Shown: in pieces, positions 26,478-51,791 of the stretch
Position numbering within the stretch: the first letter of the stretch is position 1
Layout: every line of letters starts with the position of its first letter
Source of the DNA: Nitrosopumilaceae archaeon
GTDB lineage: Archaea > Thermoproteota > Nitrososphaeria > Nitrososphaerales > Nitrosopumilaceae
Direction of reading: 5' to 3'
Length of the DNA: 64,000 bases
Assembly (NCBI GenBank): GCA_965208905.1
Contig: OZ242365.1
Coordinates: 1,184,001-1,248,000 of the forward strand
Made by a program: the position numbers and the translations under genes
The notes under the pieces: model-generated
Databases searched by the model: none
The model's input: the letters and a program-made list of their open reading frames with translations, nothing else
Told to the model about the DNA's origin: nothing

Positions 26478-26619
26478 GTAGTTAATATACTGTGGAATGT
26501 TCCACTTTGGCATTTATTGATGTATAAATCGATTATAAATTATTAAATTACAAGGCGTATCCTTAAAAAATACACCATTCGCAAGGTTTTTGAAACCGTA
26601 TTGTAACATGGTATGTAAT

Positions 26620-27846
26620 ATGCCTGATGAGATAATTGAGATGCGAGGCCATCTTATTGATTCAATGACATTGACTCGTGTAATGAACAAGATAATTGCT
26701 CGTGGCGGAAGCTATGAATTTTTACAGTTCGATGTGGGTCTCAAAGATACCGACACAAGCTACTTGAAACTTCAGGTAACTGCAGACACCACGACACTCT
26801 TGGATGAAATATTAGACGACATACATAGTGAAGGTGCAATTGAAGTATCGCCAAAGACTGTTATGATAAAACCCGCCCCCAAAGACATGACACTTCCCAT
26901 GGACTTTTACAGCACTACAAACAACGAGACTAGAGTATTCTACGATGACCACTGGATTACGGCACAGAGACAGATGATGGACAAATGTATAGTTGTTCAA
27001 GATAAGACTGCTGTATGCACAGCCATTCGTGATGTTCGTAAGGGTGATGGAATAGTTTGTGGTGAGAATGGGGTTCGTGTAGTTGTACCACACCGCCCTC
27101 GAAAGACATCTGATACATTTACGTTCATGAATAGTGGCAGCTCTAGCGAACGTCCTACTCTGAATATTGCTCGTCGGGTAGCTCAGGATATATACAATAC
27201 AAAAAAAAGTCATGGCCGTGTTATACTGGTGGGCGGACCGGCAATTGTACATACTGGAGGCTCGCCATCTGTAGCTGGCATGATTCGTAATGGATACATA
27301 AATGGGATTTTGGCAGGAAACGCCTTGGCCGTACATGATATAGAAAGCTCCATTTATGGCACTTCATTGGGTATGCGCATAAAGGATGCTACACCCGCCA
27401 GCAAAGGCCATAGAAACCATATGGATACTGTAAATGAAGTGTTCACATATGGCTCAATATATGATATGGTTGATGCTGGCAGATTAAACAAGGGAATATT
27501 TTATGAGTGTGTTAAACATGACACACCGTTTGTATTAGCCGGCTCCATACGTGATGATGGCCCGCTCCCTGACGTTGTAACTGATGTGGTTGAGGCCCAA
27601 AAAGAGTACAAAAAGATGTTGGATGGCGCTACACTAGTTCTGATGATATCCACAATGCTTCACTCTATTGCTGTTGGCAATATGCTTCCCTCTACGGTAA
27701 AGATAATTGCTGTTGACATAAATCAATCCACTGTAACAAAATTAATTGATCGTGGTACGTGGCAGGCTATGGGTATAGTTACAGATGTCGGGGCATTTTT
27801 ACCATTGGTGGTACAGGAGCTTGAGAATCAAGAGTCTACTGTGTAG
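26620..27846 (+). CDS. LOR/SDH-domain protein (TIGR00300-like; putative ornithine cyclodeaminase)
   Basis: GHLIDS, FYSTTN, SSERP, GNALAVHDIE and GSIRDDGPLP motifs. Confidence 0.85.
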   Translation: MPDEIIEMRGHLIDSMTLTRVMNKIIARGGSYEFLQFDVGLKDTDTSYLKLQVTADTTTLLDEILDDIHSEGAIEVSPKTVMIKPAPKDMTLPMDFYSTTNNETRVFYDDHWITAQRQMMDKCIVVQDKTAVCTAIRDVRKGDGIVCGENGVRVVVPHRPRKTSDTFTFMNSGSSSERPTLNIARRVAQDIYNTKKSHGRVILVGGPAIVHTGGSPSVAGMIRNGYINGILAGNALAVHDIESSIYGTSLGMRIKDATPASKGHRNHMDTVNEVFTYGSIYDMVDAGRLNKGIFYECVKHDTPFVLAGSIRDDGPLPDVVTDVVEAQKEYKKMLDGATLVLMISTMLHSIAVGNMLPSTVKIIAVDINQSTVTKLIDRGTWQAMGIVTDVGAFLPLVVQELENQESTV

Positions 27847-27962
27847 AAAAAAAATGGGAATTATAGTGATGGGTAGGATCATTTAATAATCCCAAACGGT
27901 GTAGTATAGCAAATTCAGATCCAAGGAGGTGAACGGGTAAACAGGATGCAAAAAATGCGGTT

Positions 27963-28112
27963 TCATATGCAAGTGTGCGATTTAATCATCAACCGAGGTG
28001 TCATGAATGTAAAAGGGAATGAAACCAATAGAATACACGATAGACACAGCCCGTGTATTTGAGGACATGCAGAATCAAACAGATGACATCCACACAGCCC
28101 TACAAGTTTCAT
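27963..28112 (-). CDS. Putative 49-aa Cys-rich hydrophobic peptide (IS cargo)
   Basis: MKLVGLCGCHLFDSACPQIHGLCLSCILLVSFPFTFMTPRLMIKSHTCI; preceded by GGAAGGTGAGGTG and a TATA-like ctatata about 25-30 bp upstream. Confidence 0.35.
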   Translation of the reverse strand: MKLVGLCGCHLFDSACPQIHGLCLSCILLVSFPFTFMTPRLMIKSHTCI

Positions 28113-28276
28113 GACACCTCACCTTCCTTTATATTGTATATAGTGGTTTTGATCATTTAGATACCGTAGCATTATATGTCGCGTATCGTATTGTACAATG
28201 CCATGCGGGTTTAGTAGAAACTTTCACTCGTAAATTCATTAACGATATCCGTATCATGGCCTCTGCGGGTATCATA

Positions 28277-28558
28277 TCATGTCTTATAACGCATGTCCAA
28301 AACTCGCACTATACTATGTGTTATGTGCAGCATGGTTATCTTGCGTGGAGGCCGTGACTCAAATAAGGCCCTCTCAGACTCTAAATCTTTGACTTTCTGC
28401 AACAATTCCTTCAAGTATGACATGGTTATATCGTCTGCCCGTAATTGATGTGTGTCTTTTGCCTTGTTGTATGTTGTCCCTCTGAATGATGTTACTGTTT
28501 CTATGTTGTCCCTGGGATATTCTGGCAAATTCTCTAGTATGTCCCGTTCCAATGTCAT
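28277..28558 (-). CDS. Orphan 93-aa protein (IS cargo)
   Basis: ATG ORF with a TTTATA box about 25 bp upstream; no recognisable domain. Confidence 0.55.
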   Translation of the reverse strand: MTLERDILENLPEYPRDNIETVTSFRGTTYNKAKDTHQLRADDITMSYLKELLQKVKDLESERALFESRPPRKITMLHITHSIVRVLDMRYKT

Positions 28559-28907
28559 AATGCGAGTTGTATGACAGTCTGTATAAACTCTATCAATGTT
28601 TATAATACAACCACAAGGGCAATGATATGTCGCACGGGTTCATTAATGCTCGTTAAATCGTTGCTGCCGTCCATATTGCGACCTCTGTGGACGGCAAAAT
28701 CTAAGATATAGCATTACATTTTTGTGATAAAGTTGGTTTACTATGTATTAACTTTGTACAACTAAATGCAAGTAAACATAGAGTTATAACCATAATCTAA
28801 GTATATACAAACAATGGTATAACAGTTCCATGTTACTGCTTCAGATACCATGAGCGGTAACTGTCGCTGCCCCTGTAGATTGTGAGCTAGGGGCAGCATC
28901 ATCCTTT

Positions 28908-28990
28908 GTCGTGGTGGTCTAGTCTGGTAGGGCGGCGGTCTCAAAAATCGCTCATTCACAATGGCGCAGGTTCAAATCCTGTCCACGGCG
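28908..28990 (+). tRNA. Class II tRNA with CAA (Leu) anticodon and tRNA-Ser-like body
   Basis: Acceptor GTCGTGG/CCACGGC + G73; D arm GTCTAGTCTGGTAGGGC; anticodon arm GCGGT-CTCAAAA-ATCGC; variable arm TCATT-CAC-AATGG; T arm GCAGG-TTCAAAT-CCTGT. Confidence 0.9.
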
Positions 28991-29000
28991 CACTAAACAT

Positions 29001-29951
29001 CTAACTTATCAGTTGCTCATATGTCAACCGCTTGCCAATCATGCCCCTTGCCAAACTTATCATCATGTCTTCAGTGTCTAGATTTCGTATGTTTAAACGG
29101 CCAGCAAACTCATTGACATACCTGTGCAGGTGCTTTGCCGACACATGATGGAATGTACCGTAATAGCCACGCTTTAACAAAGCCCAAAAGGATTCTATGC
29201 CGTTAGTGTGCGCCATGCCGTTGACATATTGACTTACCGAATGATTAACCACTTCGTGATTTGGTAAACTCTTGTATGCTCTATGCTCATCCGTATAATG
29301 GGTACTGCCCGACTTGACATTGTCTTTAATAAATTTGCCAAGTCGAGCAGATGTGGTCTCATTTACGGGTTCGGCTCTTATATCACCTGTCTTTCTATCT
29401 TTGATACCTACAACTGCGGTTTTGTTTGCACCGCCTTGACTGTGGGGTTGTTTCTTTGTACTGTGTTTGTTCTTTTCCTTGCCACCGATATAGGTCTCAT
29501 CTATTTCGACTGGACCTTCCAGTTTGTCAATACCTGCCAATGTTTGCCATGATTCACGCAAACGCTGAACCATGAACCATGCTGAACTTTGGGATATGCC
29601 TAAGTCTCTGTGTAGTTTCATTGATGATATACCCTTGACATTAGTCATAAACTGGTATGTTGCGATTGCCCAATGCTGGTATGATATTTTGGATTGTTGC
29701 ATTACAGTGCCGACTTTGACTGAAAAATACGTTTTGCACTTACTACAATAGTATGGCATCTTTGGATGTTTACATTCTATGGTATCATCATGTTTGCAGT
29801 TGGGACATTTACGGCCATCTCTCCATATGTGGCTTTCAAACCACTTCATGGATGTATGATTGTCTGGAAACATCTTTAGTAAATCTATTAGTGTGATTCC
29901 TTCCCTGTGTGATTTGCCTGGTGCTTGTTGCATGTAATACCTTAGATTCAT
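29001..29951 (-). CDS. IS1595-family (ISXO2-like) transposase
   Basis: Zn ribbon CPNC...CSKC, HTH, VEIDETYIGG, YTDE, VNHS, HTNGIESFW and YVNEF motifs. Confidence 0.96.
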   Translation of the reverse strand: MNLRYYMQQAPGKSHREGITLIDLLKMFPDNHTSMKWFESHIWRDGRKCPNCKHDDTIECKHPKMPYYCSKCKTYFSVKVGTVMQQSKISYQHWAIATYQFMTNVKGISSMKLHRDLGISQSSAWFMVQRLRESWQTLAGIDKLEGPVEIDETYIGGKEKNKHSTKKQPHSQGGANKTAVVGIKDRKTGDIRAEPVNETTSARLGKFIKDNVKSGSTHYTDEHRAYKSLPNHEVVNHSVSQYVNGMAHTNGIESFWALLKRGYYGTFHHVSAKHLHRYVNEFAGRLNIRNLDTEDMMISLARGMIGKRLTYEQLIS

Positions 29952-30033
29952 AGGGCATATAAATCCTACCCATCACTATAATTCCCAAAAAAATCCTCAA
30001 CACCAACGATATAATTTGAACATAGATGCAATT

Positions 30034-31425
30034 TTACTCTTTTAATAACTCTCCAAGTATGCGTAAAACCTCCTGTGGGTCGGCAGCACCACGAGTCTCT
30101 CTCATTATGATGCCTACTAAATAATTGATGGCCGGCGGATTTATACGAGCCTCATGCGCAGCCTGAGGCTCCTTCTGTAATGTGTCTGATATTATATCGT
30201 ATAATTTGGAGGTATCATAACTACTCGCGTCAAGTATGTCATCTATGTCTCCACCTTTTTTTGCTATTTTGTATAATACATCCTTGGCTACGGCCCTTGT
30301 AATTTTATTACTCTTTATCAACGTGGCAATCTTTGATAGATGCTCTGCAGTAATCTGTGAGGCGGCACGTTTCTCCCGAGTATCCATAACCCCCATAAAA
30401 TCAGTGGTTAGAATATTGGCTATTATTAAAGCCGTCTCCGGCGTTAGAGCCTCTTCGAATAAGCGACAACAACGTGTATCTGATATGAGCACATTGGCTA
30501 CCTGCGGTTTTATATTATACTGTTTGATGTATCGCTCCCGACGCGCTGTGGTACTCTCGGGCATATTGGCGGATATCTCTTTTATTGTATCATCATCTAA
30601 ATCCACCCAAGGAATATCTGCCTCTAAAAAGTACCTATAGTCAAGCTCTGCCTCCTTTGTACGAGACGATATTGTAATTCGACGGCGCTCGTCCCAATGC
30701 CGTGTCTCTTGTTGTATTGTAATGTTGTTCTCGTATAGACTGCTCTGTCGTGTTAGTTCATAATGTAGGGCTTTTTCCAGATCGTGGAATGAGTTGATGT
30801 TTTTAATCTCTACTTTGTTTCCGTCATGCACTGAAACATTTCCATCGGCGCGCATAGCACCATCCAGATACGGGTCTGCTATGTCTAGATTCTTTATGGT
30901 GTCTGCCAGCATATTCATAAAACTGCGTGCCTGTCGCGGACTGTCAAAGTCCGGCTCAGTTACAATCTCTACTAGTGGAACACCTGCCCTGTTGTAATCC
31001 ACAAGCGTTGTCTGGCGACCATCGTTGCCTCCTTCATATGTGAGCCTACCGGGATCCTCCTCCAACTGTATACGTCTGATGCGAATCTCTGTACCATCAT
31101 CTGTATTTACTGTGCCGTTACCGCCTATACTGGTGTGACCATATGCATCAAACTGTGTTATTTGATAGTTCTTTGGCAGGTCGGGATAAAAGTAGTTCTT
31201 GCGAAAGAAGGCCAGACTCTCTGGTGTAGTGCAGTTTAGTGACATGGCCAGAGCAACTCCATGTCGTACTGCCTCTGAGTTTAGCAAAGGCAGCGTACCG
31301 GGCAGTCCCAAACATATGGGACATGTATTGGAGTTTGGTGCCATACCTCTGTAGTTGGCCTTGCATGGACAGAACAACTTTGACTGTAATCGGGTCAACT
31401 GACAGTGTATCTCTAGTCCTATTAT
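30034..31425 (-). CDS. gatB: Asp/Glu-tRNA amidotransferase subunit B
   Basis: IGLEIHCQL upstream of the track start, RKNYFYPDLPKNYQITQ, DYNRAGVPLVEIVTEPD; start appears to be ATA. Confidence 0.95.
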   Translation of the reverse strand: MIGLEIHCQLTRLQSKLFCPCKANYRGMAPNSNTCPICLGLPGTLPLLNSEAVRHGVALAMSLNCTTPESLAFFRKNYFYPDLPKNYQITQFDAYGHTSIGGNGTVNTDDGTEIRIRRIQLEEDPGRLTYEGGNDGRQTTLVDYNRAGVPLVEIVTEPDFDSPRQARSFMNMLADTIKNLDIADPYLDGAMRADGNVSVHDGNKVEIKNINSFHDLEKALHYELTRQSSLYENNITIQQETRHWDERRRITISSRTKEAELDYRYFLEADIPWVDLDDDTIKEISANMPESTTARRERYIKQYNIKPQVANVLISDTRCCRLFEEALTPETALIIANILTTDFMGVMDTREKRAASQITAEHLSKIATLIKSNKITRAVAKDVLYKIAKKGGDIDDILDASSYDTSKLYDIISDTLQKEPQAAHEARINPPAINYLVGIIMRETRGAADPQEVLRILGELLKE

Positions 31426-32837
31426 TGCGTATCATCCCCTAATATGTGGCTAAACTGTAGCAGCTTGGCATCCTCCATGGAGTTGGCCATTATCTGTATG
31501 CCCACTGGCAGGCCATCGACTACACCATATGGTATTGATATGGCAGGCTTGCCGGTTAAATTAGCGGTAACTGTATTTATATCAACTAAAAACATGGATA
31601 CCGGATCATCGATCTTTTCACCTATGCGAAATGGCAGTATGGGAACTGTAACTGATATCAAATAATCATACTCCTCAAACGTCCTGTTTATCTCACGCGT
31701 TAATCTACTCTTTACCTTTAGAGCCTTTAAAAAGTACCTACCTGCATATCCTGCCGAAGGAACAAAACCACCCGCTATCATACGACGTTTTACTTCAGCA
31801 CCAAATCTTGCTCGTGCTTTTGTTACATATTGATGATACTCGTACCCTGTATAGTCCATGTCGTATCCGTATCGTATGTTGTCGTATCTTGCTAGATTGC
31901 TGGCCACTTCTGTGGATGTTATTGTATAATATGCAGCGACAGAGTAGTCCACCATCTCTAATGAGACCTCATCACACTGACATCCGTGTGACGACAACTC
32001 TTCTATGGCTTTATTCAGTATGTTTTGTATTCTAGTATCTTTGGATGCCATCTGGCGTATTATGCCAATCTTTGGATTCTCTGTTGCATTGTACTGCTCT
32101 GATAATGATACTGGTGTGGAGTTTGCAGTGGTGTTGTCATTTACATCTGGTCCGGACACTATACTCATACATAGTTGAATGTCTGATATACTTCTGGCCA
32201 TGGGTCCTATCTGTTCTATGCTATTCGCGTACGATATCAAGCCATATCGGCTTATCATACCATATGTGGGTTTGAAGCCTACTACTCCGCAGAAGCTGGC
32301 CGGGTTTCTCACAGACCCACCTGTATCTGAACCTAAAGATATGGCTGATGTATGCGTGGCCACTGAGACGGCACTTCCTCCCGATGAACCACCAGGTACA
32401 ACCTCTGTATTATGTGGGTTGAGAGTGGGCCCATACGCACTAAATTCAGTACTTAACCCCATGGCAAATTCGTCCATGTTGGTCTTGCCGATTATTATTG
32501 CATCCTCGTCTAGTATCCGTCTTATTACGGTGGCATCATACGGTGGCATATATCCATCTAGCATATGTGATGCGCACGTTGTGGGATACTGCTTTGTACA
32601 TATGTTGTCTTTGATGGATATGGGTATGCCTGCTAGACGGCCCACCTTCTCTCCTCTTTGTATACGATGATCTATCTCTTTAGCCTGCTGTATGGCATTA
32701 CTGTTCATATGTAGGAATGCATGCAGATGTGATGTATCTTCTATCTGTTTTAAGGTCTGTCCAATTATATATTCGGCAGTTGTTTCACCGCTTGATATCA
32801 TGCGTACCAACTCAGTGGCCGTCTGCGCAGGTATCAA
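31422..32837 (-). CDS. gatA: Amidotransferase subunit A
   Basis: Amidase signature GGSSGGSA...GSDTGGSVRNPA. Confidence 0.96.
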   Translation of the reverse strand: MIPAQTATELVRMISSGETTAEYIIGQTLKQIEDTSHLHAFLHMNSNAIQQAKEIDHRIQRGEKVGRLAGIPISIKDNICTKQYPTTCASHMLDGYMPPYDATVIRRILDEDAIIIGKTNMDEFAMGLSTEFSAYGPTLNPHNTEVVPGGSSGGSAVSVATHTSAISLGSDTGGSVRNPASFCGVVGFKPTYGMISRYGLISYANSIEQIGPMARSISDIQLCMSIVSGPDVNDNTTANSTPVSLSEQYNATENPKIGIIRQMASKDTRIQNILNKAIEELSSHGCQCDEVSLEMVDYSVAAYYTITSTEVASNLARYDNIRYGYDMDYTGYEYHQYVTKARARFGAEVKRRMIAGGFVPSAGYAGRYFLKALKVKSRLTREINRTFEEYDYLISVTVPILPFRIGEKIDDPVSMFLVDINTVTANLTGKPAISIPYGVVDGLPVGIQIMANSMEDAKLLQFSHILGDDTQ

Positions 32838-51714: not shown

Positions 51715-51791
51715 GCCAGGGTAGCTCAGCCCGGGAGAGCACTCGGCTGAAGACCGAGCTGTCGCGCGTTCAAATCTCGCCCCTGGCACCA
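51715..51791 (+). tRNA. tRNA-Phe(GAA)
   Basis: GCCAGGG/CCCTGGC acceptor, CTCGG-CTGAAGA-CCGAG anticodon arm, TTCAAAT loop, encoded ACCA. Confidence 0.96.

Follow-up and report, generated by a model that had tools for sequence, protein, structure and literature searches.

The window analysed here is a stretch of 64,000 nucleotides (nt) from a Nitrosopumilaceae archaeon (contig OZ242365.1, positions 1,184,001 to 1,248,000), and the host genome, which is archaeal, spans 2.21 Mb in a single contig. On the forward strand of the window, at 28908..28990, lies an intact class-II tRNA gene that joins the architecture of an archaeal tRNA-Ser to the leucine anticodon CAA (28942-28944). The gene is cargo of a recently active transposon of the IS1595 family (27856..29986). 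It follows a GC-rich hairpin with a loop antisense to the variable arm of the same tRNA, and it is one of a family of mobile tRNA modules found in Cenarchaeum-like Nitrosopumilaceae. The original prediction, made from the letters of the window, had described an identity-mismatched tRNA and a candidate mobile mistranslator. Its observation is confirmed by our analysis, and its interpretation is partly supported.

A serine-type tRNA with a leucine anticodon

ARAGORN reports a canonical tRNA-Phe at 51715 and, as the only other tRNA of the window, a tRNA-Leu(CAA) at 28908-28991. The Rfam tRNA family RF00005 matches the latter gene over its full model at 28908-28990, with 47.9 bits (gathering score 29), an E-value of 3.7e-07 and no non-canonical pairs flagged; the cloverleaf and the conserved D- and T-loop bases of the family are present. 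When the sequence is folded alone, the cloverleaf is the minimum-energy fold (-25.6 kcal/mol, z -2.0).

The features from which the mismatch had been proposed can all be read directly from the sequence. The acceptor stem GUCGUGG/CCACGGC gives G1:C72, U2:G71 and C3:G70, followed by the discriminator G73, and the anticodon arm is GCGGU-CUCAAAA-AUCGC (loop CTCAAAA in the DNA), with A37. The D arm is GUCU-AGUCUGGUA-GGGC, where the loop AGUCUGGUA has 9 nt, and the T arm is GCAGG-UUCAAAU-CCUGU. The variable region of 14 nt reads U-CAUU-CAC-AAUG-GC, with a stem of 4 base pairs (bp); the claim that this long arm has no unpaired base before C48 holds if U44 pairs with the G that precedes C48. U8, A14, G18G19, U33 and the GUUCAAAUC T loop are all kept, and the usual set of tertiary bases is complete. 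All stems pair, with five G-U pairs (2:71, 11:24, 13:22, 30:40 and 49:65) and no mismatches, much as had been described. Reads over the anticodon had been suggested as a check: contigs from four runs of one sample show no other letter there, and the whole tRNA is invariant in them. These contigs are not independent evidence, because the sample is probably the one from which the assembly was made.

We scored the tRNA with two home-made covariance models, one for serine built from 11 canonical tRNAs and one for leucine built from 8, all from the host genome and four relatives; the control tRNAs were outside the training sets. The window tRNA scored 65.0 bits with the Ser model and 42.1 bits with the Leu model, a margin of 23 bits that is clear even though the absolute values are rough, the training sequences being few and closely related. 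With the Ser score given first, the Ser controls scored 82.7 and 51.6 bits (Ser(GGA) with an intron), 81.4 and 50.9 bits (a foreign archaeal Ser, L059) and 80.6 and 55.0 bits (another, L060), while two intron-containing Leu(CAA) controls scored 39.5 and 76.6 bits (L081) and 45.5 and 77.6 bits (L090). Since the controls separate and the window tRNA scores higher with the Ser model, its body is of the Ser type despite the anticodon. G73, the 9-nt D loop and a 4-bp variable stem followed by GC are like those of the host tRNA-Ser genes, and the geometry of the D and variable arms is Ser-like, in support of the Ser-type body of the original prediction. The anticodon is that of leucine; a tRNA-Ser would have NGA or GCU. 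In the Leu model, true Leu tRNAs reach 76.6-110 bits against 42.1 for the window tRNA, which does not have the Leu-type D loop and variable arm.

The canonical tRNAs of the host give the same division at the discriminator base. G73 is found in 4/4 Ser tRNAs (CGA, UGA, GGA and GCU), and A73 in 5/5 Leu tRNAs: Leu(CAA), which has an intron, Leu(UAG), Leu(CAG), Leu(GAG) and Leu(UAA). The last of these has two introns (G000:C1:about 2088736-2088858); it was missed by the default ARAGORN and Rfam search and was recovered by BLAST with another Leu tRNA as the query. Because a canonical Leu(CAA) is present, the window tRNA is redundant for decoding. The host has one gene for seryl-tRNA synthetase (SerRS), of bacterial type, in an open reading frame (ORF) at G000:C1:208945. 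According to the available text of PMC9976931, G73 is a strong determinant for SerRS and an antideterminant against the leucyl-tRNA synthetase (LeuRS) of H. volcanii, and serine identity is independent of the anticodon.

The anticodon loop had also been placed one substitution away from that of tRNA-Ser(CGA). The host tRNA-Ser(CGA) does have the loop CUCGAAA, and 20 of 22 positions of the anticodon arm are equal, but the whole tRNA is only 65% identical and differs in the D, variable and T arms. A simple point mutant of the host tRNA-Ser(CGA) is ruled out by this identity, the two tRNAs agreeing only in their anticodon arms and in the first three pairs of the acceptor stem. On a metagenome contig, an intron-containing tRNA-Ser(UGA) has an acceptor stem and T arm that are nearly those of the window tRNA.

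Other unusual tRNA genes were seen outside the window. At G000:C1:1664528-1664679, two adjacent odd class-I tRNAs were called as Ser(ACT) and Pro(CGG) with a 3-nt insert; with Rfam both score low, at 38.7 and 37.9 bits, their T loops are bacterial- or virus-like, and the pair may lie inside a provirus or island. In a relative, a tRNA-Ser(UGA) (L061, G014:C4:187580-187661) is unlike the canonical Ser tRNAs of the family. Its contig is large and stands apart in the assembly of G014, which amounts to 4.3 Mb and may hold two organisms.

The carrier transposon

The insertion sequence (IS) that carries the tRNA is 2131 bp long, passenger region included. It is bounded by perfect terminal inverted repeats of 24/25 bp (27856-27879 and 29963-29986) and by 8-bp target-site duplications, AAAAAAAT, on the left (27848..27855) and on the right (29987..29994); target duplications of 8 bp are typical of the IS1595 family. 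The transposase gene (29001..29951, reverse strand, 316 amino acids) ends 10 nt from the 3' end of the tRNA gene, tail to tail with it. Its product matches the Pfam domain DDE_Tnp_IS1595 with an E-value of 2.2e-40 and, more weakly, Zn_ribbon_IS1595 (20.1 bits, under the cut-off of 25.4). The element thus has what IS1595 insertion sequences have in common, namely the DDE_Tnp_IS1595 domain, the terminal inverted repeats and the 8-bp duplication.

That the tRNA is mobile, as had been proposed, is borne out by a second copy of the element and by an empty site. The second copy (G000:C1:675270-677402) differs by 1 nt in 2133 and has an 8-bp duplication of its own, AAAATTAT. In the sister genome G083, whose flank is 95% identical, the site is uninterrupted and contains a single AAAAAAAT. 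In the four runs of the sample, the IS interior was assembled as a contig of its own, the depth of which was 2.2-3.1 times that of the two flank contigs in 3 of the 4 runs, and about equal to it in the remaining run, X1.

The element differs from its IS1595 relatives in its cargo of about 1.1 kb, which includes the tRNA and an ORF of 93 amino acids. IS copies related to it, found elsewhere in this genome and in 8 of the 100 family genomes sampled, match only the transposase part, and a tRNA is present in none of them. A search of the passenger region with Rfam at a relaxed threshold found no other RNA families. The available text of a 2019 survey of thaumarchaeal mobile elements (PMC6563490) states that no passenger-carrying transposons had been detected in archaea. 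We also considered an attachment-site duplicate of a host tRNA; for the copy in the window this is ruled out by a gene that is complete and is contained in the IS.

The IS occupies an intergenic gap between an ArgZ-like/LOR-SDH gene (26590-27846) and the convergent gatB-gatA amidotransferase genes (30034-32837), and it interrupts no gene. As by-catch of a motif scan, at least 7 identical copies of a stretch beginning gattttgctacagatgatgtgactag were seen (G000:C1:446528, 645665, 843666, 861613, 951287, 1496160 and 1855818); this stretch is probably another multi-copy insertion sequence.

The passenger ORF, orf93 (28277..28558, reverse strand), has no Pfam domain, and a weak PHROG match is to a group of unknown function. 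Among 5.8 billion proteins, its homologues form only two other clusters. UUG makes up 6 of its 11 Leu codons, compared with 20% genome-wide, and the six UUG positions correspond to conserved hydrophobic residues in its two homologues. Such codon usage would suit a genuine extra leucine tRNA, charged by LeuRS, that boosts UUG decoding for the genes of the mobile element; it is common for mobile elements and viruses to bring along tRNAs that read the codons of their own genes, and the CAA anticodon and the long variable arm are features that the window tRNA shares with tRNA-Leu. We nevertheless consider this very improbable. The tRNA has G73 where 5/5 canonical host Leu tRNAs have A73, its D loop and variable-arm layout are those of Ser and not of Leu, it scores far below true Leu tRNAs in the Leu model, and its sister genes with the same body, described below, bear Ile, Gly, Arg and Phe anticodons. 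As far as the available text of PMC9976931 goes, G73 also blocks LeuRS in H. volcanii.

Related modules and their upstream hairpins

From relatives of the host we recovered 24 further class-II tRNA genes with non-Ser anticodons, most of which score as Ser. Their anticodons are UAA and GAG in G018; UAU and GAA in G014; ACC, CCU and two UAA in G065; three UAU, UAA, AAG and two with an 8-nt loop around GAU in G379; CAA, ACC, two UAA, two GAU, CGG and GAA in G387; and GAU in G370. The family, then, combines a mostly Ser-scoring body with the anticodons CAA, UAA, UAU, GAU, ACC, CCU, GAA and others. When near-identical copies are merged and G370_GAU is left out, the window gene and these 24 give 21 distinct modules. 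Scores were compared for 20 distinct relatives, G370_GAU again excepted: the Ser model leads by 12-26 bits in 11 and by 1-8 bits, which is ambiguous, in 8, and the Leu model leads in 1, G379_AAG. That tRNA has A73 instead of G73, as does G379_UAU3.

One of the relatives, G387_CAA, has the identical loop CUCAAAA at 66% identity to the window tRNA. The CAA anticodon, the conservation of which had been suggested as a check, is therefore kept across diverged homologues. Our counts cover the genes recovered; the model R3, built from six odd tRNAs, gives canonical Ser tRNAs 79-85 bits and odd ones 85-95 and does not separate the two. The tallies from R3 and from the hairpin motif include the genomes G077, G092 and G093, and no specific claim rests on these.

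In a weakly supported tree, the window tRNA groups with the odd tRNAs that have a hairpin and not with the canonical Ser and Leu tRNAs, and close sisters can have unlike anticodons (for example, G379_UAA and G387_CAA). An alignment of six members has standard pairs in 95.3% of its cells, and both sides have changed in 18 of the 25 pairs. The four module neighbourhoods examined contain IS66 or DDE transposases, a DNA methylase and DUF4062. In G379, two near-identical odd tRNAs (L280 and L284) have the 8-nt anticodon loop CAUGAUGA, for which ARAGORN reports a 4-base anticodon; most of the differences between them fall in the variable arm and in the hairpin-loop bases that match it.

We also searched for close copies of the window tRNA. 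In 300 genomes of the order, its own genome aside, BLAST found no close homologue over the full length, and an exact-pattern scan of metagenome contigs, using the 5' half with position 35 left free, found no match. Viral contigs yielded only an unrelated Ser(CGA) tRNA, or nothing. In a phage collection the only matches were three short ones (64 nt, 78% identity), to a tRNA-Trp of Mycobacterium phages, and a plasmid collection gave no match.

The hairpin (28866..28897, forward strand; -19.4 kcal/mol, z -3.7), which the original prediction had not mentioned, lies 10 nt upstream of the tRNA. Its stem strands, 28866-28875 and 28888-28897, form 10 bp around a 12-nt loop (28876-28887), in which the segment ATTGTGA (28879-28885) is the reverse complement of the variable-arm segment TCACAAT (28956-28962). 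Similar GC hairpins stand upstream of other odd tRNAs, and most of their loops are antisense to the variable arm of their own tRNA, as in G065_ACC (loop ACAGCTATG, variable arm CATAGCTGT), G379_UAA (GTGGGACGTA and TACGTCCCAC) and G387_CAA (TTGGATGT and ACATCCAA). About 30 nt upstream of the ACC-module hairpin of G065 we also saw the string GTCGTGGTGGTC (L098:5880-5900), which equals the first 12 nt of the window tRNA and may be a remnant of a neighbouring module.

We measured the complementarity as the longest perfect complement between the 90 nt upstream of a tRNA and its own variable region. Of the 21 distinct modules, 12 have a complement of at least 8 nt, and with the limit lowered to 7 nt the number is 13. 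For the 420 non-cognate pairs the corresponding numbers are 2 and 17, and canonical Ser and Leu genes (n=15) have complements of only 4-6 nt. Of the 13 modules tabulated, 12 have the complement inside the loop of a stem of 6-12 bp; in the remaining one, G065_CCU, the match is of just 6 nt and doubtful. Homology between the window module and those of G387_UAA2 and G370_GAU extends through hairpin, spacer and tRNA, and in these three the variable loops CAC, TCCCT and TAGC are mirrored, in the same register, by GTG, AGGGA and GCTA. In other words, the hairpin loop and the variable arm co-vary, whatever the function. In a scan of 401 family genomes with the loop motif GATTTGACNNNNATGGTC, 6 matched, comprising 4 real modules and 2 chance matches without a hairpin, and the backwards control also gave 2 matches. 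Of the GATTTGACNNNNATGGTC matches tested in viral-contig loci, none was beside a tRNA, and one had a flanking stem of 5 bp.

The spacer between hairpin and tRNA, ATCATCCTTT (28898..28907), is short, and G387_UAA2 and G370_GAU have homologous short spacers. About 55 nt upstream of the window hairpin is a candidate B recognition element (BRE)/TATA-like element, AGTATATACAAAC (28800..28812), which we infer to be the promoter of a precursor made up of leader, hairpin and tRNA; a similar TATA-like element stands at the matching place in the two homologous modules. The short spacer and the upstream TATA-like element suggest that the hairpin is part of the precursor's 5' leader in this short-spacer subfamily. 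Most related modules have spacers of 26-35 nt that contain a TATA-like box.

Five modules are of a second type (L267, L268, L270/L271, L274 and L099, in G379, G387 and G014, with the anticodons AAG, CGG, GAU, UAU and GAA). Upstream they have a direct copy, 11-15 nt long, of the 5' part of the variable arm, followed, as judged by eye, by a copy of the 5' strand of the anticodon stem and the loop; their tRNAs cluster together in the tree. Fragments containing only the 3' part of a near-identical tRNA occur in G018 (L022:307-350, reverse strand) and on a metagenome contig (L137:about 1879-1901). Over the T arm and acceptor they agree with the window tRNA at all but one of 23 nt (22 of 23), the G018 match starts at anticodon position 35, and they look like scars of integration or recombination.

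Direct copies and 3'-part fragments of this kind, the latter typical of integration scars, would be at home in a non-translational tRNA-like module that is regulated or rearranged at the DNA level and for which translation is not the main role. The antisense copy and the variable arm would then be short inverted repeats (direct repeats in the second module type), and recombination between them would flip or delete a segment that includes the promoter along with the tRNA's 5' half. Another form of this reading makes the tRNA-like gene an attachment or target site for integrating elements. The near-identical paralogues G379_xGAU1 and G379_xGAU2 differ at several variable-arm bases and at the matching hairpin-loop bases, as repeat copying would produce, and in most modules the hairpin is upstream of the TATA-like box, so that it may escape co-transcription with the tRNA. 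We still judge this reading unlikely. The modules examined have DDE transposases but no recombinase nearby, and no inverted joint was found in the sample contigs, though contigs drop rare forms. Moreover, rearrangement of DNA would leave unexplained why full cloverleaves, tertiary bases and varied but well-formed anticodon loops are kept, and why the repeat is always placed in the loop of a GC-rich stem.

Proposed function and known systems

On these sequence data, the most likely reading, which we hold tentatively, is that of a controlled Ser-for-Leu missense tRNA on mobile DNA. Transcription in the short-spacer subfamily would probably start at the TATA-like box upstream of the hairpin. Once transcribed and matured, the tRNA would be charged by the host's single SerRS, which would disregard the anticodon and read the long variable arm and G73, while G73 would exclude LeuRS, and serine would be inserted at UUG. 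UUG accounts for 20% of the Leu codons of the host, or 16 per 1000 codons (1.6%), so such insertion would be harmful if the tRNA were abundant or uncontrolled. Since an abundant tRNA would be toxic, the hairpin may be the built-in control of the module: its loop would pair with the variable arm, the handle for SerRS, and mask it or delay maturation until a trigger came. The module could then act for mobile DNA as a poison-with-antidote cassette, in addiction, conflict or abortive defence. A wider version is possible but rather doubtful, namely a two-part mobile system in which Ser-charged missense tRNAs with swappable anticodons, able to disrupt translation at selected codons, are combined with a cis-encoded anti-variable-arm hairpin that hides the SerRS handle until released, a tRNA toxin with an RNA antidote spread by transposons for conflict between element, virus and host.

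Several observations weigh against the missense reading. Host tRNA genes have a TATA-like box about 30 nt upstream, and none is present at about -30 of the window tRNA (spacer 28898..28907). A37 is at odds with a UUG reader, the canonical Leu tRNAs here having G37, and the Rfam score of 47.9 bits is in the lower part of the host tRNA range of 37.9-74. G30:C40 is a weaker SerRS determinant in the available text of PMC9976931; the window tRNA has G30-U40, which would count somewhat against full Ser acceptor activity. The narrow training of our isotype models has been mentioned. A codon test of the transposase and orf93 found no avoidance of UUG in the IS genes: UUG is used for 5 of the 19 Leu codons of the transposase, and the UUG codons of orf93 fall at conserved Leu positions. 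As for the hairpin, the window complement is only 7 nt long, a length equalled or exceeded in the 17 non-cognate pairs noted above, and its co-variation with the variable arm could be maintained at the DNA level by copying or repeat recombination. The family-wide pairing could be partly inherited from functional Ser ancestors rather than the product of selection. Minimum-energy folding keeps hairpin and cloverleaf separate, so that the proposed pairing of loop and variable arm would have to be a tertiary contact; in folds of leader plus tRNA for 12 modules, pairing between leader and variable arm was not seen in 8, two had single cross pairs and two had many.

The missing TATA-like box, the five G-U pairs with G30-U40 among them, the unavoided UUG codons and the absence of the tRNA from the closest relative, G083, are also what one would expect of a silent relic: a Ser-family tRNA module captured by the IS, its expression lost, its wrong anticodon harmless and its decay under way. 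In bacteria, Mukai et al. (PMC5389517, in the available text) judged many allo-tRNA(UAU) genes inactive. However, the window tRNA has no stem mismatches, its conserved tertiary bases are intact and its hairpin loop still matches the variable arm. The layout of hairpin, spacer and upstream TATA-like element is common to homologues in two other genomes, which have other anticodons and intact cloverleaf stems, though the D loop of G370_GAU lacks G18G19. Because the two IS copies are separated by only 1 nt in 2133, decay has had little time to act in any case. We therefore regard a silent relic as improbable, and the decaying pseudo-tRNA that the original prediction had left open is likewise unlikely, given the intact cloverleaf and the compensatory changes across the family.

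The controlled missense tRNA that we favour can be set beside several known systems. Type I/III-like toxin-antitoxin systems and the leader-tRNA pairing of T-box RNAs share the logic of a cis-encoded RNA segment that is complementary to a part of some potentially toxic or sensed RNA. In the window module the target would be the variable arm of a tRNA, with the pairing only predicted, and we claim no membership of those families.

The nearest analogue is the bacterial allo-tRNA (Mukai et al. 2017, PMC5389517). In the available text of that study, allo-tRNAs bear the identity elements of Ser next to a non-Ser anticodon, which may be that of Leu (GAG, UAA), of Ile (UAU) or of others; they occur in linkage with toxin-antitoxin loci and transposon-related genes, and were shown to insert serine at Leu codons and to be toxic in E. 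coli. The window tRNA shares the Ser identity elements, the non-Ser anticodon and the mobile linkage at the level of sequence. It is archaeal, however, and has a 7-bp acceptor stem and a 5-bp T stem in place of the 12-bp acceptor branch in the 8/4 or 9/3 layout of the bacterial tRNAs. An upstream hairpin antisense to the variable arm was not found described for allo-tRNAs in the available text of PMC5389517.

Two eukaryotic systems are comparable in part, again from the available text of the sources. The tRNA-Ser(CAG) of the yeast CUG clade, including the dual decoding of Ascoidea (PMC6041473), is a Ser-type tRNA with a Leu anticodon that rivals a Leu tRNA for one Leu codon; it is a chromosomal, fixed code change, not mobile, with no multiple copies of varied anticodon and no antisense hairpin. 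The nev-tRNAs of nematodes and nov-tRNAs of eukaryotes (PMC4300185) are class-II tRNAs with class-I anticodons, for example Ile(UAU) and Gly(CCC), and are misacylated in vitro, but they are charged with leucine, and carriage by transposons is not known for them.

A full-text literature search, which covered the main texts of articles, found no report of archaeal Ser-type tRNAs with non-Ser anticodons, of a tRNA carried by an archaeal IS, or of a hairpin antisense to the variable arm. Natural tRNAs that break the code are known from a few yeasts, nematodes and soil bacteria; the search yielded no archaeal example, and no case of one on an active transposon together with a control hairpin matched to it. 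If the tRNAs of this family are charged with serine, regulated mistranslation modules would have evolved independently on archaeal mobile DNA. Their natural design would also be compact, a Ser chassis in which the anticodon can be swapped and the variable arm masked, and could serve to study or engineer codon-specific recoding. Whereas natural missense tRNAs were already known, the co-varying anti-variable-arm hairpin may be new in kind, and its co-variation with the variable arm gives a directly testable handle, whatever its function.

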